DNA of 64,000 bases, from contig CAYRGN010000012.1 in NCBI GenBank assembly GCA_964423865.1, forward strand, positions 21,198-85,197, read 5' to 3'. A program made the position numbers and the translations under genes. Below are positions 18,943 to 63,179 of the stretch, one piece after another; position 1 is the first letter of the stretch; the number at the start of each line of letters is the position of its first letter. Below the pieces are notes generated by a model. The model had not been told where the DNA came from, did not search any database, and saw only the letters and a program-made list of their open reading frames with translations. Source of the stretch: an uncultured Lacihabitans sp. (GTDB taxonomy: Bacteria > Bacteroidota > Bacteroidia > Cytophagales > Spirosomataceae).

Positions 18943-19016
18943 CTCACAGCTCATAGCTCACAGCTCATAGCTCACAGCTCATAGCTCACAGCTCATAGCT
19001 CATAGCTCATCACTCA
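18943..19016. repeat. Heptamer tract alternating CTCACAG/CTCATAG (about 10 units)
   Basis: Read directly from the sequence. Confidence 0.95.
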
Positions 19017-19027
19017 AATATATACCC

Positions 19028-19531
19028 ATGAACAAAGCCTTGTACGATTTCTTTACGAATGATCATCGGCGTATCGAAACCATTTTCGACGAAGCCACCC
19101 GGGATAAAGATCGGGTAGACCTGGAAAAATACCACCATTTCAGGGTAGGTTTGCTCACGCACATCAAAATGGAGGAAAAGATACTCTTTGTGGCGGCGCA
19201 GAAGGCCAATAGAGGAGAGCCGCTTCCGCTTCAGGCTAAACTGAGGCTGGACCATGGCGCCTTGACCACCCTGCTGGTATGCTATCCGTCTCCTGAAGTG
19301 ATTCGGGTCATTCAGCATGTTCTGGAAGTACACGATATCCTGGAAGAAGAGGAGGGAGGTATGTATGAGGTCTGTGCTAAACTCACCCAAAATGAGACAA
19401 GGGCCATACTGGAAGAGCTGGAAAAAGTGACCCTGGTGCCGGTACACCCCTTCAATGAAGCCGATTATGTGCTGGACGTAGCGAAGCGCTCCCTGCAAAG
19501 GGCCGGATTTGATTTTGACGATATAATCTAA
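19028..19531 (+). CDS. Hemerythrin-domain protein
   Basis: 'DHRRIE', 'HIKMEEKILF', 'DHG', 'HDILEE' HHE-type ligand spacing. Confidence 0.8.
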   Translation: MNKALYDFFTNDHRRIETIFDEATRDKDRVDLEKYHHFRVGLLTHIKMEEKILFVAAQKANRGEPLPLQAKLRLDHGALTTLLVCYPSPEVIRVIQHVLEVHDILEEEEGGMYEVCAKLTQNETRAILEELEKVTLVPVHPFNEADYVLDVAKRSLQRAGFDFDDII

Positions 19532-19686
19532 TTGTTCTTCTCGGCCTTATGCCCGGTAATCTTACTTAGATCTACATGGGAAAGGGTACGTTTAGCACGT
19601 TCCAATTTTGATTGAACAAACTCATCCAGGGAAGCGTATGGGCCACTTTTTTGTCTGGGGGAGAAATTTTTGTTTTCGGTTTTCAT
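19528..19686 (-). CDS. Small protein (52 aa), partner of DUF6934 gene
   Basis: MKTENKNFSPRQKSGPYASLDEFVQSKLERAKRTLSHVDLSKITGHKAEKNN; ATG 14 nt downstream of the DUF6934 stop. Confidence 0.55.
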   Translation of the reverse strand: MKTENKNFSPRQKSGPYASLDEFVQSKLERAKRTLSHVDLSKITGHKAEKNN

Positions 19687-19699
19687 AAAAATAATTTTA

Positions 19700-20152
19700 T
19701 CAGACCAGTTTGTTTTTTGATTTAATAACGTAAGCATCGTAATTTTGGTTCTTCCGAAACAATTCAGGTAATGAATTCTTGATGCCCCATATCTCCAGTA
19801 TATTTTCCAAATGATCGATCTCAGCAGAGATAATAATTCTGTACAATCTTGTTCTTTCCGGCGTACTTCCTTCAATATAAACTAATTTGGTTGGATACTT
19901 GTCAAAGAAGTGAAAAATAGTTCTTACAACAGTAGCAAGGACTTTTTTCATATCAAGGTTATTCGTAACGGACTTGTCATCAAATGAGCCATCAGGTAAA
20001 GCATCCACCAATGCAAGGTTGTAAAGTTGGTTATTCTTCTCAAATGGGGTGTAGATCACAACTTTGTTAACCGTTTTGTGCGAACTTTTGCTAGTAAACT
20101 CGAATCGAAGAGAGTTTGCGTAATGTTGATATGGATAATATTCTTGTTGCAT
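19700..20152 (-). CDS. DUF6934 family protein
   Basis: 'FEFTSKS', 'YNLAL', 'DMKKVLATV', 'GSTPERTRLYR' pattern; AT-rich. Confidence 0.7.
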   Translation of the reverse strand: MQQEYYPYQHYANSLRFEFTSKSSHKTVNKVVIYTPFEKNNQLYNLALVDALPDGSFDDKSVTNNLDMKKVLATVVRTIFHFFDKYPTKLVYIEGSTPERTRLYRIIISAEIDHLENILEIWGIKNSLPELFRKNQNYDAYVIKSKNKLV

Positions 20153-20215
20153 GATATGCAAATTTAGGGGAAGAGTTTGACGATCTTCTGAACTTGAGAT
20201 AACTTTTGCGCAGAT

Positions 20216-20249
20216 AAAAAAATCCCCGGCTTTCGACCGGGGATTTTTT
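20216..20249. terminator. Intrinsic terminator after acnB (bidirectional A/T tails)
   Basis: AAAAAAATCCCCGG-CTTTCGA-CCGGGGATTTTTT. Confidence 0.9.
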
Positions 20250-20255
20250 GCTGTA

Positions 20256-23027
20256 TTACCGATTTAATGTCCCTATCGGAGGTGAAAAGCGGGTCAGGTC
20301 TATGCCCTCTACCGCGGTTTTGTACTCGTCCATGTTCGGGATTCGACCCAGTATGGCCGACAGCACCACCACCGGGGTGGAGGCCAGCAGAGATTCCCCT
20401 TTCTTACGTTCAGAATCTTCCACCACCCGGCCCTGGAACAGGCGGGTAGAGGTGGCCATCACGGTGTCGCCCTTCGCTGCCTTCTCCTGGTTCCCCATAC
20501 ATAGGTTACAGCCCGGGCGCTCCAGGTACATCATGTTCTCGTATTCCGTACGGGCAGCGTTTTTAGGGAAAAGGTCATTGAATTCAAAACCCGAATATTT
20601 CTGCAACATTTCCCAGTCGCCTTCCTGCTTCAGCTCGTCTATAATATTATACGTAGGGGCCGCCACCACCAAAGGGGCCTTGAATTTCACTTGTCCCTGC
20701 TCTTTTTCGAGGTTCTTGAGCATTTGAGAGACCACTTTGAGGTCGCCTTTGTGTACCATACAGGAACCTACAAAACCCAGGTCTACTTTTTTGTTTCCTT
20801 CGTAAAACGACAGCGTACGGATGGTGTCGTGGGTATACCGTTTGGAAACATCCTGGTTGCTTACATCCGGGTCCGCGATCATCGGCTCCACAATCATATC
20901 CAGATCAATGACTACCTCGGCGTAGTATTTCGCGTTGGCGTCCGGGCTGAGGGCCGGCTTCTCACCCGACCGGATCTCGGCGATCCGTTTGTCGGCCTTG
21001 TCAATCAGCCCCTGAAGCACCCCGTTCGCGTTATCCATTCCCTTTTCAATCATGATCCGGATCCGGTCTTTCGCGATTTCCAGAGACTCAATCAGCGTGT
21101 CGTCCTGGGAAATACAAATTGCGGCTTTCGCTTTCATTTCGGCCGTCCAGTCAGTAAATGTAAAGGCCTGGTCAGCCGGAAGCGTTCCGATATGCACCTC
21201 GATTATCCTGCCTTGGAATACGTTCTCGCCTCCGAATTGTTGAAGCATCTGGGCCTGGGTGGCATGCACCACATCGCGGAAATCCATGTGCTCCTTCATG
21301 TCGCCTTTAAAGGTCACCTTCACCGATTCCGGAATAGGCATAGACGCTTCGCCTGTGGCCAGGGCCAGGGCTACCGTGCCGGAGTCGGCACCAAACGCCA
21401 CTCCTTTTGACATCCGGGTATGCGAGTCGCCCCCGATAATGATGGCCCAGTCGTCTACCGTAATATCGTTCAGTACTTTATGGATTACATCGGTCATGGA
21501 GTGGTATTCTCCCTTGGGGTCACGGGCCGTAATGAGTCCGAAATCATTCATGAACTTCATGAGTTTCGGTATATTGGCCTGGGCTTTCTTGTCCCACACC
21601 GAAGCCGTGTGGCAACCCGACTGGTAGGCGCCGTCTACAATGGGCGAAATGACCGTGGCCGCCATAGACTCCAGCTCCTGGGCCGTCATCAACCCCGTGG
21701 TATCCTGTGATCCTACGATGTTCACCTCTACCCGTACGTCTGATCCGGCATGCAACAATTTACCGGGCGTAGTACCTACTGCGTTTTTGTTAAAGATTTT
21801 TTCCACCGCGGTAAGTCCCTGGCCTTCTATCGAAATTTCTTTTGAAGGTGCAAATACCGGGGCTGGTTCTACGCCCAGGATCCGGGCAGCTACCGTCTGA
21901 ATCTTCTTCCCGAACACTACTGCGTAAGAGCCGCCGGCCCGGATGAACTCCATCTTCTGAGGAGTCAGCGATTTGGAAATATCAATCAGTTCCTGATCGC
22001 CGTTATATAGTTTTTTCTTTTTCGTATCTATGGTCAGTACGGTCCCGGTCTCTACCGAATACGCCTGTTCCAGCACCGGTTCGTTATTTTCATTGCGGAG
22101 CAGATTGCCGTCCGTGTCCAATTTTTTCACCCAGTTTTTAAGGTCAATGCCAATACCTCCCGTCACGTCTACCGTGGTCAGGAAAATGGGGGAAATACCG
22201 TTGGTTCCTCCCACAATGGGCGCAATGTTCACGAAAGGCACGTATGGACTGGCTTGCTTACCGGTCCAGAGCGCCACGTTATTCACTCCCGACATCCGGG
22301 ATGAACCTACCCCCATGGTGCCTTTTTCCGCAATCAGCATCACACTCTTGCCGGGGTGTTGCGCCTGCAATGCCTTGATTTCTTCCTGAGCCTGGGGTGT
22401 GATCATACATTTTCCGTGTAGTTCACGGTCAGAGCGGGAGTGGGCCTGATTTCCGGGGGAAAGCAGATCTGTGGAAATGTCTCCCTCGCCCGCGATGAAG
22501 GTCACGATTTGTATCTCTTCCGCTACTTCGGGCAATTCGGTGAAAAACTCCGCTTTCGCGTAACTTTCCAGCACTTCTTTCGCGATCTTATTTCCCTGGT
22601 CAAACGCTTGTTTCAGGCGGTCGATGTCCGCATCGTATAAGAAAACCTGTGTTTTAAGTACCTTGGCGGCTTCTTGCGCTATAGCGGCATCCGTACCCAA
22701 GGCCAGGTCAAGCAGCACTTCAATAGAAGGCCCCCCTTTCATGTGAGACAAAAGTTCAAATGCGAAGGCAGGAGAGATTTCGGAGACCAGGGCTTCACCC
22801 AGGATGATCTCTTTCAGGAACCGGGCCTTTACGCCCGCTGCGCCGGTGGTACCGGGCAGGGTATTGTAAATAAAGAAATGGAGGGAGTCGGCGCGGTGCG
22901 CATGCTCCGTATCTTTTATTTGTTCAATGATTTCACTTAATAGGTCGGCCTCGTCTATGGGTTTGGGGTGAAGCCCGTGGTTTTTTCTTTCTTCAATTTC
23001 TTGAATATACTCCTGATAAATATTCAT
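20256..23027 (-). CDS. acnB: Aconitate hydratase B
   Basis: 'GVGSSRMSG', 'GSQDTTG', 'GGDSHTRM', 'VGSCM', 'PGCNLCMGNQ', 'STSTR'-like 'ATSTRLF'. Confidence 0.95.
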   Translation of the reverse strand: MNIYQEYIQEIEERKNHGLHPKPIDEADLLSEIIEQIKDTEHAHRADSLHFFIYNTLPGTTGAAGVKARFLKEIILGEALVSEISPAFAFELLSHMKGGPSIEVLLDLALGTDAAIAQEAAKVLKTQVFLYDADIDRLKQAFDQGNKIAKEVLESYAKAEFFTELPEVAEEIQIVTFIAGEGDISTDLLSPGNQAHSRSDRELHGKCMITPQAQEEIKALQAQHPGKSVMLIAEKGTMGVGSSRMSGVNNVALWTGKQASPYVPFVNIAPIVGGTNGISPIFLTTVDVTGGIGIDLKNWVKKLDTDGNLLRNENNEPVLEQAYSVETGTVLTIDTKKKKLYNGDQELIDISKSLTPQKMEFIRAGGSYAVVFGKKIQTVAARILGVEPAPVFAPSKEISIEGQGLTAVEKIFNKNAVGTTPGKLLHAGSDVRVEVNIVGSQDTTGLMTAQELESMAATVISPIVDGAYQSGCHTASVWDKKAQANIPKLMKFMNDFGLITARDPKGEYHSMTDVIHKVLNDITVDDWAIIIGGDSHTRMSKGVAFGADSGTVALALATGEASMPIPESVKVTFKGDMKEHMDFRDVVHATQAQMLQQFGGENVFQGRIIEVHIGTLPADQAFTFTDWTAEMKAKAAICISQDDTLIESLEIAKDRIRIMIEKGMDNANGVLQGLIDKADKRIAEIRSGEKPALSPDANAKYYAEVVIDLDMIVEPMIADPDVSNQDVSKRYTHDTIRTLSFYEGNKKVDLGFVGSCMVHKGDLKVVSQMLKNLEKEQGQVKFKAPLVVAAPTYNIIDELKQEGDWEMLQKYSGFEFNDLFPKNAARTEYENMMYLERPGCNLCMGNQEKAAKGDTVMATSTRLFQGRVVEDSERKKGESLLASTPVVVLSAILGRIPNMDEYKTAVEGIDLTRFSPPIGTLNR

Positions 23028-23315
23028 ATATGATCTTTTAGCTTAAAGCCACAAGCGATATGCTGTAAACCGCACACTCCCACTTCCCCAGCGGTTTGTG
23101 GTTCGGTTCAAAGGATTCCTGTCTTATGACTCAATTCGTACTATCTTAATAACCGCCAAAATTACAAATGGATTCCCAAATTGGAATTAAGGAGTATCTT
23201 ATTTAGAAAAATTCAAAATATTTTAGAATTTCCCCGTGTTTTTTTGTTTTTTTGTCATTTTTGTAAAAAATTTAGGTGAACTATCCTTTATTTTGCGCCA
23301 ACTTTTAAAGCATAC

Positions 23316-28376: not shown

Positions 28377-29151
28377 GCAAGGTGAAATAACGGTGCCAGG
28401 GAATGCTATCTGGGTGTTCTGACGGGGGTGGAGTGTGTCCGATCCGCACGGCTTGAAACTTCTCTTTCATGACACCGTAGGAAGCGCTGAAAGGTGTAAT
28501 CTCCCCAAAAAGTATCAGTTCAGATGCGGATGTCGACAGGTTTGGAAGATTCCGGACAGGGATCCTTTCGATATTCAAGGTCTTGTTTTTCCCCTTCATA
28601 GCGTATAAGGTTACAAAGTGGTCGGAGGCAACCCCCATGGCCAAATGGGTGAAATTGCGGGCAAAATACCGCGCCTGTACAGCCAGGGAAGACAGGGGGG
28701 CAAGGCCGGAATATACCATTGTAAAGAGGCGGGTGACCTTTTTCGGGGTGCCGCTTACGAGGTAATGGCCGGAAACCGCTTCGGAATACACATCAAAATC
28801 CGTTACGGGCGCGGATGGATAAGCCAGCGCCAGGTACCTTTCAGCGAGGGAAGGCAGGAAAACCGGGGCAGGGACCAGGGTATGAATTTCAAAATCAGAG
28901 AGCAGTTGAACACCTTTCCAGGAAGGAAGACCCAGGAATGGGTGGTGTTCGATCAGGGCGGCGCATCGCGACAAGCAGGCCGTCAGATCGTGACCCTGGC
29001 CCAGGAAGTGGTCCTCCAGCACCAAGAGTTCTTCTCCGTGTTTTACTGTAAAACGAAGTCGGGAATACTGGACCTCCAGAGTCAGGTCGTACCGTTCGGT
29101 ATATTCTGTAGAAAATCGCTCGTCTGTAATTTTGAAAGTGTTGTTCGTCAT
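28321..29151 (-). CDS. DUF3822 family protein
   Basis: 'DERFSTEYTERYDLTLEV', 'TLVPAPVF'; typical Bacteroidota context. Confidence 0.65.
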   Translation of the reverse strand: MTNNTFKITDERFSTEYTERYDLTLEVQYSRLRFTVKHGEELLVLEDHFLGQGHDLTACLSRCAALIEHHPFLGLPSWKGVQLLSDFEIHTLVPAPVFLPSLAERYLALAYPSAPVTDFDVYSEAVSGHYLVSGTPKKVTRLFTMVYSGLAPLSSLAVQARYFARNFTHLAMGVASDHFVTLYAMKGKNKTLNIERIPVRNLPNLSTSASELILFGEITPFSASYGVMKEKFQAVRIGHTPPPSEHPDSIPWHRYFTLLSPGLSEIKIPDQNHIEL

Positions 29152-29163
29152 GAGTTTGGGGTA

Positions 29164-29212
29164 TGAGCAATGAGCTTAGAGCTATGAGCTATGAGCTATG
29201 AGCTGTGAGCTT
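29164..29212. repeat. Heptamer tract (TGAGCTA-type) x7
   Basis: Read directly from the sequence. Confidence 0.9.
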
Positions 29213-29219
29213 TTGGTGT

Positions 29220-29657
29220 TTAATTTTTTTGGGGGAATACCGTTTCCTTCAGAAATGAAGGGCATTGGCCGGGCGGTATGCGAACCAGTTCATCTTCCGT
29301 AAACCACCGAAGTTCGGTCAGAATATTGCCTTCGGGGTCCGAGCCCAGTACCGGTTTCGGATCAGGGGCGGAAACCCGGAAGTACAATTCTACCGCATGA
29401 AGTTTTCCAGCGATATGTTCGTGAATACGGAGCAGTTCATGGACCGTGACCTCCAGACGGGTTTCTTCCCGGAACTCCCGCTGCAATCCGCTCACCACGT
29501 CCTCGCCCGGTTCCAGTCCGCCGCCCGGGGCATTCCAGAAGATGTTTTCCGGGTTCAGGAAGCGGTGGTTAAGCAGCAATACCCGGTTTTGCAGTCTCAA
29601 TACGCCGCAAGCCCGCAAGCGGATCCGTTGGCCGTAAAGGGTTTCAATGCTCGTCAT
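29220..29657 (-). CDS. NUDIX hydrolase
   Basis: Nudix box 'GGGLEPGEDVVSGLQREFREET'. Confidence 0.9.
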   Translation of the reverse strand: MTSIETLYGQRIRLRACGVLRLQNRVLLLNHRFLNPENIFWNAPGGGLEPGEDVVSGLQREFREETRLEVTVHELLRIHEHIAGKLHAVELYFRVSAPDPKPVLGSDPEGNILTELRWFTEDELVRIPPGQCPSFLKETVFPQKN

Positions 29658-30970: not shown

Positions 30971-31040
30971 AAGAACTAATCTGAATAATTTTACAAATTT
31001 AATTGATTTCATGCGTATATTGGTGACTTAATTCAGTTAA

Positions 31041-31075
31041 TAGCTCATAGCTCACAGCGCATAGCTTGCAGCTCA
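31041..31075. repeat. Heptamer tract (TAGCTCA-type) x5
   Basis: Read directly from the sequence. Confidence 0.85.
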
Positions 31076-31086
31076 AAATTAAACGC

Positions 31087-31686
31087 ATGAAGAAAACACT
31101 TTTGCTCCTTTTGTTGCCCTGCTTTATTTTTGCCCAGAAATCAAAGCAGGTATCTCTTTTTAATGGTAAGAACCTGGACGGGTGGGTCATTTACGGTACG
31201 GAAAAATGGTATGTGGAAGACGGCCTCCTGGTTTGCGAGAGCGGGCCGGACAAAGGTTACGGATACCTGGGAACGGAAAAATCGTACAAAGATTTTGAAC
31301 TTACACTGGAGTTTTTTCCGGAAGATAACGGGAATAGCGGGGTGTTCTTCCATTCCAGTATTGAAGGAACCAAGGTGAGCGGATGGCAGGCCGAAGTGGC
31401 CCCTCCGGGATACTTTTCCGGCGGGATTTACGAGTCGTATAAACGCGGCTGGCTGATTAAGCCGGACAAAGAACTGGATAACGTAAAAATGAATACCTGG
31501 AATTCCATGAAGATCAAAGTACTTGGTGATGAAGTGACCACCTGGGTAAACGGGGTGCAGATGGTGACGCTGAAAGACCCGGTATTTGCGGATTCGGACG
31601 GTAAGATCGCTTTACAGATTCATGACGGCGGGGGGATAAAAGTGAAGTGGAGAAACATGAAGATCAAGACGTTGAAAGCGAAGTAA
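31087..31686 (+). CDS. DUF1080 (3-keto-disaccharide hydrolase family) secreted protein
   Basis: Signal peptide; '[10 protein letters not shown]', 'GNSGVF', 'WNSMKI', 'IALQIH'. Confidence 0.88.
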
Positions 31687-33635: not shown

Positions 33636-33700
33636 GTCGGCATCGCACGCACATGGCCTCGAAAGAAAAAATCCCCGCATTTCATGTGTATAAAATTTTT

Positions 33701-33863
33701 GCCTTCAGCTATCAGCGGTCAGCCGGGCGGAGGGCCGCCCCGCGACACTTCGCTTATTCATTGGGGGGCGCCTAGCCGGCGGTCGGGCGACGCTTCGCTG
33801 GTGTGCCGGTTTTCTGATAGTGGTTCTCCACCCGGCTGATAGCTGAATGCTCATGGCTATTTC
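33701..33863. repeat. About 160-bp composite palindromic element, copy A
   Basis: Near-identical to 42964-43127; heptamer-built terminal inverted repeats. Confidence 0.9.
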
Positions 33864-33897
33864 GTAAGACAAAACATTTGGAATTCCGCCGGATATC

Positions 33898-34245
33898 GAT
33901 GTTTTACCGATAGGTTGTCCCTACAGGACATGACGGTTTCGCTGGATATGGAATTGCATTCCCGTAGGGGATTGTATAACGGTAGAAAACCGGATGTTTT
34001 ACCGATAGGTTGTCCCTACAGGACATGACGGTTTCGCTGGATATGGAATTGCATTCCCGTAGGGGATTGTATAACGGTAGAAAACCGGATGTTTTACCGA
34101 TAGGTTGTCCCTGCGGGACATGGGGATTTCGCCGGATATGGAACTGCATTCCCCGTAGGGGATTGTATAACGGTAGAAAATGGGATTCCTTTCTCTTTCT
34201 TCATACCCCGTAGGGGTTAAATAGTATTGTAAAAAGTCTACCGAC
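33898..34245. repeat. BIME-like array: three 95-bp tandem units of inverted REP arms plus a partial fourth
   Basis: Units start at 33898, 33993, 34088; arms TTTTACCGATAGGTTGTCCCTACAGGA / TCCCGTAGGGGATTGTATAACGGTAGAAAA. Confidence 0.9.
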
Positions 34246-34446: not shown

Positions 34447-35763
34447 ATGAAAATAGCTGTAGTAGGTACCGGGTATGTAGGTTTGGTGACCGGAACATGT
34501 TTTGCCGAGACAGGGAACGAAGTCACCTGTATCGATATTGACCAGGCGAAGGTAGACAGCCTGAAAAAGGGAAAGATTACCATATATGAGCCGGGACTGG
34601 AACCTATTTTTGACCGGAACCGTAAAGACGGAAGGTTAAAATTTACTACTGAACTGGAAGAAGGGATTAAGGAAGCCGAAGTGATTTTCCTGGCGTTACC
34701 CACTCCTCCGGGAGAAGACGGTTCAGCCGACCTGAAATATATCCTGGGGGTAGCAGACCACATCGGTAAGGTGCTGGATCATTACGCCGTGATTGTGGAT
34801 AAAAGTACGGTACCGGTAGGAACCGCCGAGAAAGTACATGCCAAGGTGGCGGCGAATGCCAAAACCGAGTTTGATGTAGTCTCTAACCCGGAATTTTTGC
34901 GGGAAGGGGTAGCGGTAGAAGACTTCATGAAGCCGGACCGCGTAGTGGTAGGGACGAGCTCGGAAAGGGCGAAGGTCATCATGGAGAGGTTGTATGCGCC
35001 TCTGGTAAGACAGGGGAATCCTATTATCTTTATGGACGAACGCTCGGCGGAAATGACCAAATACGCGGCTAACTCTTTCCTCGCCATGAAAATTACCTTC
35101 ATGAACGAGATGGCCAACCTTTGTGAGCTGGCCGGCGCTAACGTAGATAACGTGCGGAGAGGTATCGGTACCGACAGCCGTATCGGTAAACGTTTCCTGT
35201 TTCCGGGGATCGGGTATGGAGGAAGTTGTTTCCCGAAAGATGTGCAGGCCCTGGGAAAAACCGCCCAGGAGTTTGACTATGATTTCCGGATTCTGAAATC
35301 CATTATGCTGGTCAATGAAAAGCAGAAAGTAAAGCTGATTCCCCGGGTGAAGGAGTATTTTGGAGGAGATTTGAAAGGGAAAACCATTGCCTTATGGGGA
35401 CTCGCATTCAAACCGTATACCGATGACATCCGGGAGGCGCCATCCCTTTACAATATCAAAGCGCTGAAAAGAGCCGGAGCGAAAGTGGTGGTGTTTGACC
35501 CCGAGGCTGTAGCCAACGTGAAGAAAGAAATCGGTAAAAAAGTGAAGTACGCTTCGGGTATGTACGATGCGCTGGAAGGTGCCGATGCCCTGATGATTAT
35601 GACCGAGTGGCCCGAATTCAGAACACCGGATTTTAAGAAAGTAGCGGAAAAACTGAAAAATAAAGCGATCTTTGACGGGCGTAACCTGTATGACCTGGAA
35701 GAAATGAAGGGGCTGGGCTTTGCTTATTTTTCTATAGGCAGGGAAGCTGTAAAAGTGAAGTAA
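34447..35763 (+). CDS. ugd: UDP-glucose 6-dehydrogenase
   Basis: GTGYVG, SNPEFLREG, catalytic GGSCFPKD. Confidence 0.96.
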   Translation: MKIAVVGTGYVGLVTGTCFAETGNEVTCIDIDQAKVDSLKKGKITIYEPGLEPIFDRNRKDGRLKFTTELEEGIKEAEVIFLALPTPPGEDGSADLKYILGVADHIGKVLDHYAVIVDKSTVPVGTAEKVHAKVAANAKTEFDVVSNPEFLREGVAVEDFMKPDRVVVGTSSERAKVIMERLYAPLVRQGNPIIFMDERSAEMTKYAANSFLAMKITFMNEMANLCELAGANVDNVRRGIGTDSRIGKRFLFPGIGYGGSCFPKDVQALGKTAQEFDYDFRILKSIMLVNEKQKVKLIPRVKEYFGGDLKGKTIALWGLAFKPYTDDIREAPSLYNIKALKRAGAKVVVFDPEAVANVKKEIGKKVKYASGMYDALEGADALMIMTEWPEFRTPDFKKVAEKLKNKAIFDGRNLYDLEEMKGLGFAYFSIGREAVKVK

Positions 35764-35768
35764 GTTAT

Positions 35769-35853
35769 GAGTAGTGAGTAGTGAGTAGTGAGTAGTGAGT
35801 AATGGGTTAAGGAATCAAACCTGCGTAACTCACTACTCACTACTCACTACTCA
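35769..35853. repeat. Inverted heptamer tracts (GAGTAGT)x5 ... (CTCACTA)x3.5
   Basis: 35769-35803 and 35829-35853 are reverse complements. Confidence 0.95.
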
Positions 35854-35866
35854 AAACTAAACATCT

Positions 35867-42770: not shown

Positions 42771-42950
42771 TTATCGCTGACAACTTCCACCAGGTCCGCA
42801 ACCCACATTCAGTAGAGGCATTAACGAGAACAACGCCCCTAAAGTAATAAACAATCCGTCGCCAACAAGAATTCCCTGTATGATAACGGCCAGGCCGATA
42901 GCCAGCCGTAAGAGGCGGGGGAGGGTCCATTGTGATAGGTGTTTTTTCAT
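42771..42950 (-). CDS. DUF2892-like small membrane protein
   Basis: 'RLLRLAIG', C-terminal 'GCGPGGSC'. Confidence 0.6.
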   Translation of the reverse strand: MKKHLSQWTLPRLLRLAIGLAVIIQGILVGDGLFITLGALFSLMPLLNVGCGPGGSCQR

Positions 42951-42963
42951 GGGTATATATTTT

Positions 42964-43127
42964 AGCATTCAGCCTTCAGCTATCAGCCGGGCGGAAGGCC
43001 GCCCCGCGACGCTTTGCTTATTCATTGGGGGGCGCCTAGCCGGCGGTCGGGCGACGCTTCGCTGGTGTGCCGATTTTCTGATAGTGGTACGCCACCCGGC
43101 TGATAGCTGAATGCTCATGGCTATTTC
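42964..43127. repeat. About 160-bp composite palindromic element, copy B
   Basis: TCAGCTATCAGCCGGG ... CCCGGCTGATAGCTGA termini; near-identical to 33701-33863. Confidence 0.9.
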
Positions 43128-43140
43128 ATTCGTATAAAAT

Positions 43141-43455
43141 TTAGCTGTTCTTCTGTGCTTTGTCTACTGCTTCCCAGGTGCCGCCGTTGGTGACATTGGT
43201 AAAGCCGTTTTGGTTCAGAAGGGCTTTGGCCTGGGCGCTGCGGCCGCCACTTCGGCAAAACACTACAATATTTTTTTTGTTTTTAAACTTTGCCATTTGG
43301 GCGGGTAGTTTATCCAGGGGGATATTGACGGCTCCTTTGACACTGCCCATGGCGAATTCAGACGGTGTACGGACGTCCACGAGGTAAGCTCCCTCTTTCA
43401 GAATGCCCTGCAAGTCTGCCGTATTTCCGAAGAGATTTTTAAACAGATTGAACAT
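43141..43455 (-). CDS. Rhodanese-like domain protein
   Basis: 'VDVRTPSEF', active loop 'FCRSGGRS'. Confidence 0.9.
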   Translation of the reverse strand: MFNLFKNLFGNTADLQGILKEGAYLVDVRTPSEFAMGSVKGAVNIPLDKLPAQMAKFKNKKNIVVFCRSGGRSAQAKALLNQNGFTNVTNGGTWEAVDKAQKNS

Positions 43456-47314: not shown

Positions 47315-47347
47315 AAAAGGAGCCGGATAACGTTATCCGGCCCCTTT
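47315..47347 (-). terminator. Intrinsic terminator after susD
   Basis: Minus strand GGGGCCGGATA-ACGT-TATCCGGCTCC-TTTT. Confidence 0.85.
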
Positions 47348-47349
47348 AT

Positions 47350-47405
47350 GAGCTATTAGCTATCAGCTATCAGCTATCAGCTATTAGCTCAAGGCTCACA
47401 GCTAT
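47350..47405. repeat. Heptamer tract (AGCTATC-type) x8
   Basis: Read directly; abuts the susD stop codon. Confidence 0.9.
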
Positions 47406-49016
47406 TTAGTACCCCGTGTTCTGGCTCAGGTTCGGGTTTTTGGTCAGCTCTCCCAGGGGAATGGGGAAGAGAATCCGGGTCTGGGCCTGGGCGTGAGGCT
47501 GGTGGTTAAACCATGTTTTGGTTTGGAATACCCCGAAGCGGATGAGGTCCTGGCGACGGTGGGCCTCTGCGGCGAATTCCCAACCCAACTCGTCAAGGAA
47601 ACGGCCGTAGGAAATATCAGCGCCACCATTAGCTACGGCTACGCTGCCGTCTTTTTCCTGCCATCCGTATTGGTACGAACTTCCTTTGAGGAGGTCTTGC
47701 CCGGTTACCGTGGCCTTTGCAGGGTTGTTTTTAAAGGCACGTTGCCTTACCTGGGTCACCAGTCCTGCCGCGGCATTGGCATCTCCTTTTCTAAGCAGCG
47801 CCTCCGCCTTCATCATCAGGATATCGGCGTAGCGGAACATGGGGTAGTCGTTATCCAGGTTATTGGTAGCCCCTTGTTTGATTTTGTATTTGCCTATTCT
47901 GTAACCGCTGTTGCTGGGCGCTACGGTGCCGTCTCCCCCGATACCGGGTACCTCTTTCTTGTAATCAATCACCAGCTCACCGGTGGTAGCGTTGTACTGC
48001 GGGCCCTGGATCCAGCTGTCGGTTAAGCGGGAGTCTTCCGCGTCATAGGTGTCGATAAACTGGGGTACCGCGCAGTTTCCGCCCCATGGACCGGCCGACA
48101 TATTGTACACCAGGCGGCTCAGGGGATCCAGCGTTTTCATGTGGATCTGGGAGCCTTGTCCGTAGATTTCATCGTAGGGAACCGCGAAGATGATCTCTTT
48201 GGAATTGTGGTTGGTATACGTGAAGACATCGGAATAGTTGGCATCCAGCACGTAGCTGTTGCTGTTGATAATCTCGTCGGCTTCCCGGATCACGGCGTCC
48301 CATTGCGCCGTACCGGTATACACTTCGGCATTCAGGTATACTTTGGCCAGCAGGGCTTTGGCCGCCCATTTGTTCATCCGGCCGTAGGTACCCGCCACGT
48401 CAGTAGCCAGAAGAGGAGTAATTTCGGTGAGTTCACTAATCACAAAGTCATATAGTTCCTTCCGGGTTTTCTGCTGGGGAAGGGAGATGTCGCGGTAATC
48501 GGTGACGATAGGTACATTTCCATGGTTGTCCAGCAGCAGGTAATAGGCCAGGGCGCGGGCGGCGCGCAGTTCGGCAATAGCCGCTTTTCCTACGGCGTCA
48601 GGAAGCGGGATGTCTCCGTCTTCAATCTGGGCGATCACCATGTTGGCACGGGTGATGCTGGAGTAGGCCTGATTCCAGGTGTTGGTAGGTTGCCATTGCT
48701 CAGAATTCCAGTTGTGCTGGTGCATCCTCCGGTAGGTACCGCCATCGTCCCAGCCGTTAGGCCGTACAGGGGTAACAATGGCATCGGCCGGTTCTTCCTG
48801 CAGGTCAAAGTAGCCCTGCCATCCGAACATCAAAGAACGGAAAGAAGCATACACGGGAGCGAGGATGTTGGGAAGGTCTCTTTCCGTAGGTTCAAAAGAG
48901 GTAGAAAGTACTTCCGAGAAAACCTCTTCGTCCAGGTTGGTACAGGAGCTCATTCCCCCGCCTACAAACATAGAGGCGGTTAGTGCATATACATATATTT
49001 TTTTCATGTCTTTCAT
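47406..49016 (-). CDS. RagB/SusD family lipoprotein
   Basis: Lipobox 'MSSC'; 'LRAARALAYY', 'RYADILMMKAEA', 'EFAAEAHRRQDLIRF'. Confidence 0.93.
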   Translation of the reverse strand: MKDMKKIYVYALTASMFVGGGMSSCTNLDEEVFSEVLSTSFEPTERDLPNILAPVYASFRSLMFGWQGYFDLQEEPADAIVTPVRPNGWDDGGTYRRMHQHNWNSEQWQPTNTWNQAYSSITRANMVIAQIEDGDIPLPDAVGKAAIAELRAARALAYYLLLDNHGNVPIVTDYRDISLPQQKTRKELYDFVISELTEITPLLATDVAGTYGRMNKWAAKALLAKVYLNAEVYTGTAQWDAVIREADEIINSNSYVLDANYSDVFTYTNHNSKEIIFAVPYDEIYGQGSQIHMKTLDPLSRLVYNMSAGPWGGNCAVPQFIDTYDAEDSRLTDSWIQGPQYNATTGELVIDYKKEVPGIGGDGTVAPSNSGYRIGKYKIKQGATNNLDNDYPMFRYADILMMKAEALLRKGDANAAAGLVTQVRQRAFKNNPAKATVTGQDLLKGSSYQYGWQEKDGSVAVANGGADISYGRFLDELGWEFAAEAHRRQDLIRFGVFQTKTWFNHQPHAQAQTRILFPIPLGELTKNPNLSQNTGY

Positions 49017-56571: not shown

Positions 56572-56761
56572 AATATCACTTAGGTTCGGTTGAATCATTA
56601 AATAAAACTAGCGAATATTAACGTCTGATCCAAATTTCGACACCTTATTAGTTAATTTTTGCGCATGAAATGTTAAGAATATTGGTTAAATTCAATCGAA
56701 TCGTGTAAAATTTACGCAAATCGACTTATGCCAAATATAATTCGGTGGTTTTGCTACAGGT

Positions 56762-56803
56762 CAAAAACAGAAGCGTGTCATAAGGGGAAACGCCTCTGTT
56801 TTG
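56762..56803 (-). terminator. Intrinsic terminator after deoD
   Basis: Minus strand CAGAGGCGT-loop-ACGCTTCTG-TTTTT. Confidence 0.65.
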
Positions 56804-56809
56804 TGCCGG

Positions 56810-57511
56810 TTATGCTATACCGAGGGCGATCTCCATCATTTCGTTAAAAGTCTTTTCCCTTTCTTCCTGGCTGGAAGCCGAACCCGTCAGGATGTTATCG
56901 CTCACCGTCAGGAGGGAAAGCGCGTTTACGCGGAAACGACATGCCATGGTGTACAGGATTTCGGTTTCCATATCAATGCCAAGTATGCCGTGTTTTTTCC
57001 AAACGTCCCAGCGGTTGGGTTCCAGGTCGTAGAAAGTATTGGTACTGAAAACCGTGCCGGGATGTACGCGGATATCCAGTTTGCGGGCAATCTCGTAGGC
57101 CTTCACCAGCAGTTCGAAACTGGGTGTAGGGGCAAAGTGTTGGTTCTTAAAGAGTACCGTGTTGGCGTCGGAGTCGCCCGAGGCGCCTGTGACCAGCAAT
57201 ACCTGGCCCAGGTCGAGGTCTTCCTGTATGGAGCCGCACGTGCCTACACGGATCAGGTTCCGGCATTGGTAGGTATTGATCAGTTCATGAATGTAGATAC
57301 CTGCGCTGCCCATACCCATGCCGGTGCCCTGTATGGAAACGCGCTGTCCTTTGTACAGTCCCGTAAATCCGAACATATTCCTGACTTTGTTGTAACAGAC
57401 CACGTCGGTCAGGTAGTTTTCGGCTACGAATTTCGCTCGTAGAGGATCTCCGGGCAGGAGTACGGTTTCGGCGATGTCGCCTACGTGGGCTTCTAAATGT
57501 ATGCTTCTCAT
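56810..57511 (-). CDS. deoD: Purine nucleoside phosphorylase (DeoD type)
   Basis: 'LLPGDPLRAKF', 'VRNMFGFTG', 'GTGMG', 'RVGTCG', 'DMET'. Confidence 0.95.
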   Translation of the reverse strand: MRSIHLEAHVGDIAETVLLPGDPLRAKFVAENYLTDVVCYNKVRNMFGFTGLYKGQRVSIQGTGMGMGSAGIYIHELINTYQCRNLIRVGTCGSIQEDLDLGQVLLVTGASGDSDANTVLFKNQHFAPTPSFELLVKAYEIARKLDIRVHPGTVFSTNTFYDLEPNRWDVWKKHGILGIDMETEILYTMACRFRVNALSLLTVSDNILTGSASSQEEREKTFNEMMEIALGIA

Positions 57512-57542
57512 GTATTTTGTTTTTAGGCTAAAAGCCGGGTTT

Positions 57543-59900: not shown

Positions 59901-59918
59901 TTTATGATAGATTAGAAG

Positions 59919-60872
59919 TTAGGCCATAGGGTGGCGGTGGGCGGCCGAATAGCTGCCGGTGACGTAATGTTCCAGCTGGCGTTCGATGTCGCCCAACAGG
60001 CTGCTCGCCCCGAAGCGGAACAGGCGATTGTTCAGCCATTCGTTCCCCAGCTCTTCTTTGATCAGAATCAGGAAATCAAGGGCCTGTTTGGCCTTTTGAA
60101 TACCGCCCGCGGGCTTATACCCTATGCGGATACCGGTAAGGTCGTAATACGCGCGGATGGCCCGTACCATCACCAGGCTCACGGGCAGCGTGGCGTTGAC
60201 CGCTTCCTTGCCGGTGCTGGTCTTAATGAAATCGGAGCCGGCCATCATGCTCACCCAGGAAGCTTTGGCCACTTTGGTAAGGATGGGGATCTCTCCTGTA
60301 GCCAGAATGGTCTTCATGTGGGCTTCTCCGCAGGCTTCGCGACAAAGTTTTACTTCGTGATACAGTTCTCCCCATTGGTTATTGATCACCAGCTCCCGGC
60401 TGATCACAATATCAATTTCCGTAGCGCCGGCTTCTACTGACCGCCGGATTTCGTCGAGTTTCTGTTCCAGGGAAATTTTGCCGGCAGGGAAGCCGGTGGA
60501 TACCGCGGCTATGGGCAGTCCGCTGTTGCCCAACGCTTTTCTGGCGTCGGCAATCATGTTGTGGTAAACGCAAACGGCCCCTACGGTGAGGGCAGGAAAC
60601 CCGAGGGCCTCCAGGAGGTCAGTGCGTACGGGATTCAGCGCTTTGGCACAGAGGCGCTGCACGTTTCCCGCGGTGTCGTCTCCGGCCAGGGTGGTCAGGT
60701 CAATACAGGAGACCGCGCGAAGCAACCAGGCGGCCTGATGTTCTTTTTTAACGGTGCGACGGCCCGGGAGTGTGGCCGCTCTGCGTTCTACGGCAGAACG
60801 GTTAATGTTCAGATGATCAAAATATTCCGGTCGGTAAGGAAGTCCTCCGTTCCGGCTTTCACTTGCGTTCAT
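59919..60872 (-). CDS. deoC: Deoxyribose-phosphate aldolase (long, eukaryote-like type)
   Basis: 'IDLTTL', 'EIDIVI', 'KTILATG', 'DFIKTSTGK', 'KPAGG', 'RFGAS'. Confidence 0.95.
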   Translation of the reverse strand: MNASESRNGGLPYRPEYFDHLNINRSAVERRAATLPGRRTVKKEHQAAWLLRAVSCIDLTTLAGDDTAGNVQRLCAKALNPVRTDLLEALGFPALTVGAVCVYHNMIADARKALGNSGLPIAAVSTGFPAGKISLEQKLDEIRRSVEAGATEIDIVISRELVINNQWGELYHEVKLCREACGEAHMKTILATGEIPILTKVAKASWVSMMAGSDFIKTSTGKEAVNATLPVSLVMVRAIRAYYDLTGIRIGYKPAGGIQKAKQALDFLILIKEELGNEWLNNRLFRFGASSLLGDIERQLEHYVTGSYSAAHRHPMA

Positions 60873-61091
60873 AAGCGGAAACTATTGAAATAAACGGTAA
60901 GAAAGATAATTCTTTCGGAATCCACAAAAAAACGGACCAAAATTAGTTTTCCTAATGGGTGAAAGAACCCGTGTATAAAGGAAACATGACGTTCCATACA
61001 GCGTAAATGACCGGATAATAAAAATATACAGACGTACTTGTTTGTTCACGGAAATCTTGTTTTTTTTGCAGAAAATAAAATAATATTTCTT

Positions 61092-61616
61092 ATGAAAAAG
61101 ATTATCTCATCACTGCTTTTTTCGGTTTTGGTTTTATGCGGACTAAGTGTTTCCGCACAGTTTGAGAAGGGTGATAAATTATTGAATGCAGGTATTAACC
61201 TGGGAGGTACTTACGGCGGTGGCGTAGGTGTCGGCGGTTCTTTTGAGGTTGGAGTACATGACTTCATCAGCGTAGGTGGCCAGGCTGACTTTGTGAACTG
61301 GAATAATAGCTGGGGTGGCTATGGGTGGAAATATAACTTCTTCACTATTGCGGCAAGAGGTTCCTACCACTTCGGTAAGCATTTTCTGACTATAGATAAC
61401 CTGGATTTGTACGGGGGACCGTCTTTGGGTTACATAGTAGCTAACTACAAGGATCCCAGTGGCTGGTCAGGAACGTATATAGACAACTACGGTAGCGGAG
61501 TCTTTTTTGGTATTTTTGCCGGAGCAAGGTATTACTTCAAGCCTACCATGGGTGTATTTGCGGAAGTGGGCCACAATGCTTCTCCGTTAAAAGCCGGGAT
61601 TACCTTTAAATTGTAA
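61092..61616 (+). CDS. Small outer-membrane beta-barrel protein
   Basis: Signal peptide; alternating Gly/aromatic strands; terminal 'AGITFKL'. Confidence 0.8.
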   Translation: MKKIISSLLFSVLVLCGLSVSAQFEKGDKLLNAGINLGGTYGGGVGVGGSFEVGVHDFISVGGQADFVNWNNSWGGYGWKYNFFTIAARGSYHFGKHFLTIDNLDLYGGPSLGYIVANYKDPSGWSGTYIDNYGSGVFFGIFAGARYYFKPTMGVFAEVGHNASPLKAGITFKL

Positions 61617-61637
61617 ACTGTAGTTTTCTTCACAGGA

Positions 61638-61757
61638 TCTGTGTCGATCTGCGATATCTGTGAGAGGAAGAAACATTTTCAGCTCACAGATACCGCAGAT
61701 TTACATGGGTTTTTTTGTACGGGAGAGATGTCATTTCAGCACACAGATACCACAGAT
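61638..61757. repeat. REP-like ATCTGTG/CACAGAT repeats (inverted pair plus third copy)
   Basis: ATCTGCGATATCTGTGAG (61647-64) vs CTCACAGATACCGCAGAT (61683-700); third copy 61742-57. Confidence 0.75.
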
Positions 61758-62920
61758 TTTATAAGGGCGAGGTAGCTTTTCCCCGCCGTAGCGTAGTCCA
61801 CCTCCAGGTAGTCGGCCACCGTAGCGGCAATGTCCGCGAAACTTTCTCTTATTCCGGTATTCGCTCCTTTCCTGATTTTCTGTCCTATATGCAATAAGGG
61901 AATATATTCCCGGGTATGATCTGTGCCGGGGGCTGTAGGGTCGTTGCCGTGGTCGGCGGTAATGATCAGCAGGTCTTCTTCCTTCAGATTTTCCAGGATT
62001 TCGGGTAGGTAGGAGTCGAACTCTTCCAACGCTTTGGCATAACCGATTACATCCCGGCGGTGTCCGTACTCCATATCAAAATCTACCAGGTTGGTGAAGA
62101 TCAGGGCTTCGGGGGCCGACTTAATCGCTTCGATGGTGTCCAGTATGCCCTCCTTGTTGTTCTTGGTTTTTTTGTAGCGGGTGATCCCTTTTTCGGCGAA
62201 GATATCGATGATCTTACCGATGGAATATACACCCTTTCCGCTATTGGAAACCGCGTCAAGTACAGTTTCTGGGGGGATGGTAGCGTAATCCTTTCGGTTT
62301 TTTGTACGGTAATATTCCCCGGAAGATCCGAGGAAGGGCCGTGCGATGACCCGTCCCACTTCCAGGTTACCGGTGAGCATTTCCCGGGCAATGCGGCATA
62401 TTTCGTATTGTTTTTCCAAAGGAATTATCTCTTCGTGCATGGCCACCTGGAATACGCTGTCGGCGGAAGTATATACAATGGGATACCCGGTACGGACGTG
62501 TTCGTCGCCGAGTTCATGGATGATGGCTGTACCGGAAGCCGACACATTCCCGATGGTTTTGGTGCCAATGGCATTTTCAAAAGCAGAGAGGAACTCCCTA
62601 GGAAATCCGGTTTCGGTATAAGTGGGGAAGGGTTTGTCGAGTATCACACCGGATATCTCCCAATGGCCTGTAGTGGTATCTTTCCCGGCCGAACGTTCGG
62701 CAGCCTTCCCGATCGCCGCCTGAGGGGAATCGGTTTTCTCCAGCGCGTTTTCCGGTACAATATTTCCTAAGCCCAATGCCGTGAGGTGGGGCAAGTACAG
62801 ATCAGGATAGTTTAAGGCAATGTTTTCCAGGGTGTTGGCGCCGGTATCCCCGTAAAGGTGCGCATCCGGTAATTCGCCGATTCCCACCGAATCAAGAACA
62901 ATTAAAATTACGCGTTTCAT
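61736..62920 (-). CDS. deoB: Phosphopentomutase
   Basis: 'LIVLDSVGIG', 'GKDTTTGHWE', 'YTSADSV', 'NLVDFD', 'TADHGNDP', 'DHTREY'. Confidence 0.95.
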   Translation of the reverse strand: MKRVILIVLDSVGIGELPDAHLYGDTGANTLENIALNYPDLYLPHLTALGLGNIVPENALEKTDSPQAAIGKAAERSAGKDTTTGHWEISGVILDKPFPTYTETGFPREFLSAFENAIGTKTIGNVSASGTAIIHELGDEHVRTGYPIVYTSADSVFQVAMHEEIIPLEKQYEICRIAREMLTGNLEVGRVIARPFLGSSGEYYRTKNRKDYATIPPETVLDAVSNSGKGVYSIGKIIDIFAEKGITRYKKTKNNKEGILDTIEAIKSAPEALIFTNLVDFDMEYGHRRDVIGYAKALEEFDSYLPEILENLKEEDLLIITADHGNDPTAPGTDHTREYIPLLHIGQKIRKGANTGIRESFADIAATVADYLEVDYATAGKSYLALIKSVVSVC

Positions 62921-62932
62921 ATTTTATATAGT

Positions 62933-62988
62933 TTAGCTGTGAGCCATGAGCTATGAGCTGTGAGCTGTGAGCCATGAGCAATGAGCTT
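62933..62988. repeat. Heptamer tract (TGAGCYR-type) about x8
   Basis: Read directly from the sequence. Confidence 0.9.
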
Positions 62989-63143
62989 TTTGTGGTCGAA
63001 AGGTTTGGTGTAACCTTTTCTAAAAGAGGTTCACTGCCCGGCTCAAAGCTGATTCCTGTTTTCACGGATGTTAAATTACAACATTCTTTTACACGGGCCT
63101 AAAAATAATGGCTTACTTTTGTACACAAATTTATTGCTATATA

Positions 63144-63179
63144 ACAGCTGAAAGCTCATGGCTCAAAGCTCACAGCTCA
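63144..63179. repeat. Heptamer tract (AGCTCA-type) x5
   Basis: Read directly from the sequence. Confidence 0.85.

Follow-up and report, generated by a model that had tools for sequence, protein, structure and literature searches.

Among the long simple repeats of bacteria, tandem heptamers are the most common. The STRR heptamers of heterocystous cyanobacteria are abundant intergenic tandem repeats that have no assigned function; to our knowledge they have been described as fingerprinting repeats, with neither a positional rule nor an element structure. Extragenic palindromes of the REP/BIME type, which go with RAYT transposases, gather downstream of stop codons and form stacked arrays, and the Correia elements of Neisseria and the enterobacterial ERIC elements are co-transcribed MITEs. 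For the 23S rRNA IVS protein family, which is kin to Avd of diversity-generating retroelements, no function is known to us.

In Xanthomonas and Nostoc, Rehm et al. 2015 (PMC4692102) reported the coding-strand heptamer within 50 bp after, or over, stop codons and its complement within 50 bp upstream of ORFs, with 70-75 convergent inverted pairs per genome, most of them transcribed. MacGregor 2015 (PMC4679880) described TAACTGA arrays with a patchy distribution in Beggiatoaceae, cyanobacteria and five Bacteroidetes. The stop/start strand rule of heptamers is already published for these other heptamers, and the bias was twice reported without a cause (PMC4692102, PMC4679880). The 23S rRNA IVS carries an S23p ORF in the loop of an RNase III-cut stem of terminal repeats, and horizontal transfer has been proposed for it (PMC4990558, PMC11270868).

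Here we analysed the heptamer tracts of a 64,000-nt stretch of a Cytophagales genome (the window) and of the genome around it, and we consider it likely that small insert-like elements of one family have these tracts as their inverted terminal arms. What is new is a burst of gene-less copies, including a family that we call E, a portable leader, insertion at start codons and a locus found in three states. The Xanthomonas and Nostoc repeats follow the same rule but differ in unit (GGGAATC, quadruplex-forming) and in phylum, and no gene link between arms, fixed 9-15 nt leader or start-codon insertion was reported for them (PMC4692102). Rotated, TAACTGA reads CTGATAA, which differs by one base from the CTGATAG unit found here, and the TAACTGA repeats are likewise intergenic, forward just upstream of unrelated starts, with a few reverse copies after stops; unlike ours, they consist of one unit in 2-6 copies, often 1 nt from the ATG, with one inverted pair, and the paper describes no hairpin element, mini-ORF or four-helix-bundle link (PMC4679880). 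The 23S rRNA IVS of Coxiella burnetii and Leptospira (PMC4990558) resembles our elements in having a PF05635 four-helix-bundle ORF in the loop of a terminal-inverted-repeat stem, and in being a sporadic, proposedly selfish and horizontally transferred insert in a transcribed region that spares the host product. In contrast, all copies seen here lie between protein-coding genes and not in helix 25/45 of 23S rRNA, their arms are long 7-nt arrays, the gene is mostly lost, the 3' end carries a translation leader, and cutting by RNase III is putative.

The stop/start rule in the window and across the genome

The following window tracts adjoin gene ends:

18943-19027, plus strand: solo tract of the 3'-arm type, (CTCACAG/CTCATAG)n to 19016, with an 11-nt G-free leader before the ATG at 19028
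29152-29211, minus strand: 12-nt leader and (CTCATAG)n tract upstream of the ATG at 29151; stop of the upstream gene at 29220-29222
31040-31086, plus strand: (AGCTCAT-type)n tract and 11-nt leader before the ATG at 31087
47347-47405, minus strand: tract directly 3' of the SusD stop (47406-47408), followed by a GC hairpin and U-run terminator at about 47319-47344
62921-62987, minus strand: 12-nt leader and (CTCACAG/CTCATGG)n tract upstream of the ATG at 62920
63144-63191, plus strand: (CTCAAAG-type)n tract and 12-nt leader before the ATG at 63192 (TMEM220-like protein)

The first-pass annotation had placed tracts 11-13 nt upstream of six ATGs of functionally unrelated genes, and re-reading gave the same values: the last in-phase CTCA (or CTAA) unit lies 11, 12, 11, 13, 12 and 12 nt from the ATGs at 19028, 29151 (minus strand), 31087, 35867, 62920 (minus strand) and 63192. 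Pfam matches of the proteins at the window tract sites begin at residues 1-12, so these ATGs are true starts, and the functions of the linked genes are indeed unrelated. On the stop side, the claimed onset of 0-5 nt stood, with tracts beginning 4, 4 and 0 nt downstream of the stops at 1850-1852 (minus strand), 35761-35763 and 47406-47408 (minus strand), but the claimed strand did not hold at 47406, where the sense-strand tract is (CTGATAG)n, oriented as upstream of starts and not as the complement. Solo tracts have no significant RNA structure (z -1.4 at 18943-19027, and +0.6), and hairpin processing therefore cannot account for them. In the relative G081, the site of 31040-31086 holds two arms and a loop, and the site of 29152-29211 holds no tract, the orthologous flanks at 29152-29219, as at 33683-33865, being strongly diverged and the filled or empty state not cleanly readable there. 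When four metagenome DNA runs were compared with positions 1-19500 of the window, Logan contigs ended inside tracts, at 1657 and 18972/18981.

Across the 3.59 Mb genome, TRF returned 721 period-7 rows, which merged into 585 tracts of at least 21 nt; by a gene set from a crude in-house caller, 546 of these (93%) are intergenic, the intergenic share of the genome being only about 14%. In the 30 nt before starts, tracts of the six commonest unit families have one orientation 118 times and the other 2 times, and at least two in-phase CTNA units stand in the 45 nt upstream of 233 of 2856 gene starts, compared with 14 for the reverse complement of the same 45 nt. Tracts end 8-15 nt before a start in 107 cases (30.7 ± 5.1 expected, maximum 50, over 2000 random placements in the same intergenic regions) and start 0-5 nt after a stop in 50 (36.4 ± 5.1 expected), with about 63 further tracts overlapping the stop codon itself; the tract copies are related by descent, and these counts describe a pattern, not independent trials. 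The positional rule is weaker on the stop side than on the start side, and the distances and strands, as the first-pass annotation had supposed from its few sites, are non-random genome-wide.

C-versus-G skew failed as a strand descriptor (83 vs 73); the polarity lies in the motif (CTSA...) and not in composition. A further candidate source, that ATG or stop codons are avoided upstream of genes, was rejected: CTGAAAG and CTGATAG occur 37:0 and 23:0, yet their complements contain no start codon, and several sense units contain no stop codon.

Hairpin elements and four-helix-bundle cassettes

The heptamer tracts are arms of modular hairpin elements and not free microsatellites, as the paired sites of the window illustrate:

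35764-35866, plus strand: gene-less hairpin between ugd and uxs, with 5' arm 35768-35801, loop, 3' arm 35828-35853 and an unpaired 13-nt leader
1794-1845, minus strand: 5' arm (TAGTGAG)n, onset 4 nt after the acyltransferase stop at 1850-1852
1691-1793, no strand assigned: inter-arm spacer containing a REP-like hairpin of a different dispersed family
1629-1690, minus strand: 3' arm (ACTACTC)n, complementary to 1794-1845

An element runs from a stop-rich 5' arm through a loop and a CTSA-type 3' arm into a leader (consensus AAAATTTTATACAC) and an ATG, the leader between 3' arm and downstream ATG being 9-15 nt long, G-free and A/T-rich. All 60 adjacent inverted tract pairs have one arrangement (e.g. 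TGAGTAG...CTACTCA, AGCTATC...CTGATAG), with loops of mostly 6-60 nt. The predicted stem between ugd and uxs is about 26 bp long (-54 kcal/mol, z -10), another reaches -76 kcal/mol (z -4.3), and the leader is unpaired in both folds. Tract-linked starts share the context AAAATTTTATACAC-ATG-AAA, with G at only 2-6% at positions -14 to -4; genes without tracts have a weak leader consensus only. Rfam holds no family matching the elements.

All four four-helix-bundle genes of this genome (97-134 bits against PF05635, 100-127 bits against TIGR02436) lie between inverted heptamer arms, which belong to four different unit families, and these families are also the commonest gene-less tracts; the gene-bearing copies share with IVS the S23p-family ORF inside the element and the terminal inverted repeats that enclose it. 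Among relatives in the family, 14 of 27 four-helix-bundle copies are armed (shifted controls, 0 of 54), and across the phylum 8 of 26 (0 of 52). Between arms we found four-helix-bundle genes or short loops only and no ordinary genes, and several hundred copies are gene-less, with no PF05635/TIGR02436 ORF. One locus occurs in three states among congeners: full in G000 and G150, empty in G199 (stop, 11 nt, ATG), and reduced in G081 to a remnant of the last 16 nt of the gene and the right arm. The first-pass annotation had offered, as one option, that the tracts are the pair of arms that a small mobile cassette left between a stop and the next initiation region, and had pointed to a small four-helix-bundle gene as its possible content; the armed genes here and in the relatives and the full, empty and gene-less states of this locus support that option, on which the elements would be mobile.

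The E family numbers about 80-106 copies, 91-220 nt long, that precede unrelated genes; two of them are in the window:

33683-33865, minus strand: E copy (ACG AAA TAG ... leader ... ATG) on the 3' side of the DUF3108 gene, with no credible gene downstream
42948-43129, minus strand: E copy with mini-ORF ATG AAA TAG (43129-43121), long stem, leader (42962-42951) and ATG 42950

The mini-ORF of the second copy lies 11 nt after the stop of the upstream gene (43141-43143), and its ATG at 42950 is supplied to a 59-aa membrane ORF that ends at 42771. The left end of E directly follows an ATG in 70 of 100 copies and abuts the right end of another module in 27 of 100; at a start codon, E leaves behind the two-codon mini-ORF ATG AAA TAG, and the new leader and start codon come from the element. 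In 70% of copies, an ATG stands on both sides. The AAA after the left ATG is unchanged even where the second codon of the gene differs and is therefore part of E. A clear target duplication was not found at E, and the flanking ATG may be target, duplication or element part. E copies stack in tandem, with three modules upstream of G000:C12:18304, where the G081 orthologues are two genes overlapping by ATGA. At G000:C1:4739, E stands between a native TAnnTTTG promoter, UTR and ATG on its left and the ATG AAA AAA of the gene on its right. The orthologous sites of G081, G150 and G161 are empty, and promoter, UTR and ATG follow one another directly there. The E layout occurs in at least four genera: of 200 genomes searched, three had 13, 9 and 9 copies, and most gave none.

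The four-unit AGCTSAH pattern occurs at 143 places here and at none in two same-genus genomes, period-7 tracts are nearly absent from the syntenic 80 kb of G081, and orthologous sites differ in unit variants and copy numbers. Judged from these genome sequences, the gene-less elements are a lineage-specific burst, with hundreds of copies in this Cytophagales genome.

E copies resemble MITEs (PMC3184786) in being small, gene-less, multi-copy and intergenic with terminal inverted repeats. However, MITEs derive from transposase-bearing insertion sequences with defined target duplications, and no such parent was found for E; the full versions here carry a four-helix-bundle gene, and the elements have heptamer arms, exact start-codon insertion and their own leader. 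REP/BIME elements are alike in post-stop clustering and stacking, and differ from the heptamer arms, which have no GTAG-type core or linked Y1 enzyme; the STRR heptamers are alike in being abundant, intergenic, tandem 7-nt units. No transposase or recombinase tied to the arms was found among the Y1/RAYT genes and the reverse transcriptase, and the search of the genome for a longer "autonomous" E copy was negative. The two RAYT genes of the genome are flanked by GTAG-type and other REPs and not by heptamer arms, and its one reverse transcriptase is isolated, with no four-helix-bundle gene beside it; both were rejected as partners.

Origin of the rule and competing explanations

On the preferred reading, a full member carries one PF05635/TIGR02436 four-helix-bundle gene between two complementary 7-nt-unit arrays, and gene-less members, the majority here, are hairpins of both arms and a short loop or single surviving arms. 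The 5' end sits at or over the upstream stop, or right after a start codon that becomes the mini-ORF ATG AAA TAG, and the 3' arm of sense CTSA-type units is followed by the leader and then by the start codon of the next gene. With a fixed direction and such ends, both neighbouring genes would stay intact after insertion, and the strict distance and strand rule would result from element build and from the loss of inserts that cut off expression of either neighbour. Once transcribed, the arms may pair into a long stem cut by RNase III as in the rRNA IVS, which would split the cistrons and keep the leader single-stranded, open to initiation without a Shine-Dalgarno sequence, and arm length may drift via 7-nt slippage. 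E may also derive from the four-helix-bundle cassette, the one trait that points to this being the shared arm unit family. A bolder version, which we regard as doubtful, is that E is a start-codon-homing, expression-preserving mobile element that inserts at an ATG, turns the old start into a TAG-closed mini-ORF, has its stem excised or tolerated in mRNA and brings a portable leader and ATG, with the four-helix-bundle protein of the Avd/IVS family mobilising all heptamer-armed elements.

The most serious competitor is a host cis-regulatory system, in which the tracts are unstructured G-poor leaders or protein-binding arrays (S1, cold-shock, CsrA-like) that tune translation or mRNA stability and were spread by selection. 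Such a role was put forward by MacGregor for TAACTGA repeats in the same forward orientation (PMC4679880), and it agrees with the unstructured solo tracts (z -1.4, +0.6), with an adjoining leader of the A-rich kind at which Bacteroidota are expected to initiate without Shine-Dalgarno, as outlined in PMC3155529, and with the signal peptides in 45% of linked genes vs 28% (p 1e-5). It is nevertheless improbable: same-genus genomes with the same genes have no or almost no tracts, the linked genes are unrelated in function, stacked modules are needless for a tuned leader, copies also occur with no credible downstream gene (33683-33865), and the four-helix-bundle genes between arms are left unexplained. 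The first-pass annotation had named 5'UTR elements and protein-binding arrays among its options; the rule comes mainly from element build and single handedness and not from an independent, dispersed cis-code, and a role of this sort may be a secondary one.

We give very little weight to ordinary slippage microsatellites from which selection removed those in coding sequence or the ribosome footprint, even though many bacteria have heptamers as their most frequent long simple repeats, slippage has been proposed for them (Mrazek 2007, as cited in PMC4679880), and unit variants and copy numbers vary among orthologous sites. Slippage lengthens tracts but cannot set the 8-15 nt distance to the ATG (107 vs 31 expected), nor would it produce the 118:2 orientation, the non-repeat loops and ends conserved in about 80 copies, or the single-handed inverted pairs; the first-pass annotation was right to reject it on its own, and it probably still contributes by changing the length of the arms. 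An action of the arms at the DNA level, as cruciform or quadruplex-type structures or as integron-like recombination sites that shuffle genes, is just as improbable. Inverted arrays could extrude cruciforms, quadruplexes form from the G-rich heptamers of Xanthomonas and Nostoc, to which the same position rule applies (PMC4692102), and folding slightly favours the opposite strand of E (antisense more stable in 54 of 62 folded copies); the units here, however, are not G-tract repeats, the arms enclose four-helix-bundle genes or short loops and no ordinary genes, and the folding difference is one mismatch inherited by all E copies, which for that reason is no evidence of a functional strand. The elements also do not match integron cassettes with attC sites, there being no varied genes between the arms and the elements being dispersed and not in one array.

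Implications

Heptamer repeats and the IVS protein family are linked here in one genome, where every major tract family has a gene-bearing copy. Gene-less copies stand at about one in twelve gene starts and leave the genes unbroken, through their own stop codons and a Shine-Dalgarno-less leader. If mobile, the element would be a compact natural insert built to be harmless inside operons, and a source of portable Bacteroidota translation leaders and, should the stems be cut, of intercistronic processing hairpins. If the four-helix-bundle protein mobilises the elements, it would gain a function, and the heptamers of many bacterial phyla would be its footprints.

Position and strand of the heptamer tracts

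TRF returned period-7 arrays at every place in the window that a first-pass annotation, made from the sequence alone, had named, and we also read these sequences directly. The reading bore out the annotated gaps of 11-13 nt between six tracts and an ATG, and Pfam matches of the adjoining proteins, which start at residues 1-12, agreed with the claim that the genes are functionally unrelated (hemerythrin-like, DUF3822, 3-keto-disaccharide hydrolase, UDP-xylose-synthase-like epimerase, metalloenzyme, TMEM220-like, UDP-glucose dehydrogenase, acyltransferase and SusD). On the stop side, the proposed onset within a few nucleotides of three stop codons stood, but the proposed TGAG/GATAG orientation did not at the SusD stop, past which the sense strand reads (CTGATAG)n, oriented as upstream of starts.

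Tracts of the window: gap from the last in-phase CTCA/CTAA unit to the ATG, or onset past the stop codon
ATG 19028 (+), gap 11 nt
ATG 29151 (-), gap 12 nt
ATG 31087 (+), gap 11 nt
ATG 35867 (+), gap 13 nt
ATG 62920 (-), gap 12 nt
ATG 63192 (+), gap 12 nt
Stop 1850, onset 4 nt past it
Stop 35763, onset 4 nt past it
Stop 47406 (SusD), onset 0 nt past it

Compared with random placement, the positional and strand rule that had been read from the window is real across its whole genome (G000, a metagenome-assembled genome of 3.59 Mb in 82 contigs with 48% GC, in which the window is C12:21198-85197), being strong and non-random at starts and weaker at stops. Its nearest named relatives put G000 in Spirosomataceae (Cytophagales). 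TRF on G000 gave 721 period-7 rows and, after merging, 585 tracts of at least 21 nt, 546 of them intergenic; the gene set (2856 genes) came from a rough in-house gene caller. Distances from tract end to start peaked at 9-15 nt and those from stop to tract at -5 to +3. With random placement confined to the same intergenic regions as the observed tracts, 107 tracts were found 8-15 nt from a start compared to 30.7 ± 5.1 by chance, and 50 lay 0-5 nt past a stop compared to 36.4 ± 5.1. At least two in-phase CTNA units occurred within 45 nt upstream of 233 gene starts, versus 14 with the stretch complemented.

Sense:antisense counts of tract families within 30 nt upstream of starts in G000
CTGAAAG, 37:0
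CTGATAG, 23:0
CTCATAG, 16:1
CTCAAAG, 17:0
CTCACAG, 13:0
ACTCACT, 12:1

In the congener G150 (locus L109, C2, ~362200-362300), a CTSA-type tract lies upstream of a TAnnTTTG-like promoter box and not at an ATG, so that tract position relative to the promoter varies. Other dispersed short repeats, among them a palindrome with core GTCACCCTGAGCTTGTCGAAGGG and a 23-nt tandem unit, sit beside heptamer modules at window 1691-1793, at 63510-63576 and in many intergenic regions of G000. Window 8024-8110 (-) matches the Bacteroidales small SRP RNA (RF04183, 60.5 bits), and metagenome-contig read depth is raised over the same interval.

Inverted arms and the four-helix-bundle cassette

The tracts belong to modular elements, whose arms they form. 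A listing of upstream regions placed many of them within near-identical composite elements with non-repeat loops. In G000, 60 neighbouring tract pairs were inverted; the same arm led in every pair, and most loops measured 6-60 nt. Since an inverted pair is identical on both strands, for pairs the rule amounts to a single handedness. The ugd-uxs pair has a predicted stem of ~26 bp (-54 kcal/mol, z -10), with the 13 nt preceding the ATG predicted to remain unpaired, and solo tracts were without structure in folding prediction. Tract-linked starts share a strong leader, AAAATTTTATACAC-ATG-AAA, in which G accounts for only 2-6% at -14 to -4; the start regions of other genes show merely a faint A preference.

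One of the long-gap inverted pairs in G000 enclosed a 117-aa ORF, and all four PF05635/TIGR02436 (four-helix-bundle) genes of this genome lie between inverted heptamer arms, each cassette with a different arm family (AGCTATC/CTGATAG, GAGTAGG/ACTCCCT, AATTACG/CGTAATT or TTGACAA/AATTGTC). These four families are also the commonest among gene-less tracts. In co-directional cassettes the right arm is followed by the leader and the ATG of the next gene, and in one cassette whose gene runs antisense to its neighbours the arms still obey the rule. The suggestion that relatives might carry such a gene between the arms was confirmed: among relatives in the same family, 14 of 27 four-helix-bundle genes have inverted period-7 arms on both sides (0 of 54 shifted controls), and so do 8 of 26 from other Bacteroidota families (0 of 52). 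At one locus on contig C39 the cassette is full in G000 and G150, empty in the congener G199 (stop, 11 nt, ATG), and reduced in the congener G081 to the right arm plus the final 16 nt of the gene, a remnant which shows directly that internal cassette deletion can yield a solo right arm before a start. A fixed composite of AATTACG units, ~30 nt long, is also present in G000 in about 20 copies, which lie mostly just past stops (orientation 18:1) and lack a partner arm; in the cassette on contig C27 it serves as the left arm.

A gene-less family at start codons

A BLAST search of one composite region against G000 returned about 87-106 copies of a gene-less element family, E (91-220 nt), in which similarity sets in at ATGAAATAGCC and ends just past the downstream ATG. 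The left end directly follows an ATG in 70 of 100 copies and abuts the right end of another module in 27, the AAA behind the left ATG is part of E itself, and the predicted fold is one long stem with the TAG of E at one end and the base of the leader at the other. Two copies lie in the window:

33683-33865, E copy
42948-43129, E copy

Genes downstream of E are unrelated, with signal peptides enriched (45% vs 28%). E-like copies in the context ATG / AAATAG...leader / ATG are present in four or more genera (13 copies in G150, then 9, 9 and a few); of the 200 genomes searched, most yielded none.

Comparison with relatives supports reading the modules as insertions. Upstream of G000 C12:18304, one hairpin of the TGAGTAG type and two E copies are stacked as three modules; every module closes in ...ATACAC ATG AAA, and the next one's TAG follows. 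At this site in G081, the closest relative (syntenic, ~80% nucleotide identity), the orthologous gene pair has an ATGA overlap. At G000 C1:4739, a native TAnnTTTG-type promoter, UTR and ATG run into E and then into the gene's ATG AAA AAA; in three congeners the promoter and UTR at this site lead to the gene's ATG with no E present. Period-7 tracts are nearly absent from the syntenic 80 kb of G081, where some sites orthologous to tract sites hold short or decayed arms. A four-unit AGCTSAH pattern occurs at 143 places in G000, at none in two same-genus genomes and at 1-7 places in 4 of 80 family genomes, and metagenome DNA contigs matched to the window break within tracts.

Directly behind an E copy, a 59-aa hydrophobic ORF occupies window 42771-42950 (-), followed by a second small ORF at ~42757, both easily missed by length filters. 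At window 43131-43143 and on G000 contig C34 there are minimal junctions, in which a stop overlaps a single AGCTAAA/AGCTGAA unit and a TTTTATAC-type leader and ATG follow without a tract; such junctions may be seeds of modules or footprints left by them. In genome G131 (locus L104, C4, ~6334-6360), a sequence like the left end of E runs, by eye, into the apparent signal peptide of a sulfatase-like gene; it could be an incomplete element or similar merely by chance.

Candidate enzymes and known repeats

Searches of G000 for RAYT genes, reverse transcriptases and an autonomous copy of E found no enzyme linked to the elements and no such copy. Two Y1 (RAYT-like) transposase genes (C49:16994-17338 and C28:22686-23030) each have their own REP family, and were rejected as mobilisers of E or the arms because both are flanked by these other REPs; in the window, the 95-bp tandem array (33898-34180) is made of units similar to the GTAG-type REPs beside the C49 gene. 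The single reverse transcriptase of G000 (C5:68009-69019; L154:1315-2325, -; 336 aa), with best matches to UG17-type and group-II-like enzymes, was rejected as a partner because it stands alone, and its neighbouring ORFs had no match in the padloc or NCBIfam libraries.

The S23p/four-helix-bundle family is akin to Avd of diversity-generating retroelements (PMC10053308). In the ORF-bearing intervening sequences of 23S rRNA, RNase III cuts a stem of terminal repeats whose loop holds an S23p ORF (PMC4990558; PMC11270868), and the G000 cassettes have the same layout, a four-helix-bundle ORF between pairing arms. By the mechanism we propose, the arms would pair in the transcript and then be processed or tolerated, and the unpaired, G-free leader may support Shine-Dalgarno-less initiation (cf. 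PMC3155529).

In Xanthomonas and Nostoc, the same positional and strand rule has been reported for heptamers of the GGGAATC type, together with convergent pairs and stop-codon overlap (PMC4692102); it has also been reported for TAACTGA repeats (PMC4679880), a rotation of CTGATAA and one base off the main unit of G000. Neither study ties its repeats to a gene or a hairpin element. What is new here is the growth of gene-less derivatives to hundreds of copies in one genome, a conserved portable leader, insertion at start codons, accompanied by a mini-ORF and by stacking, and a locus found in three states.
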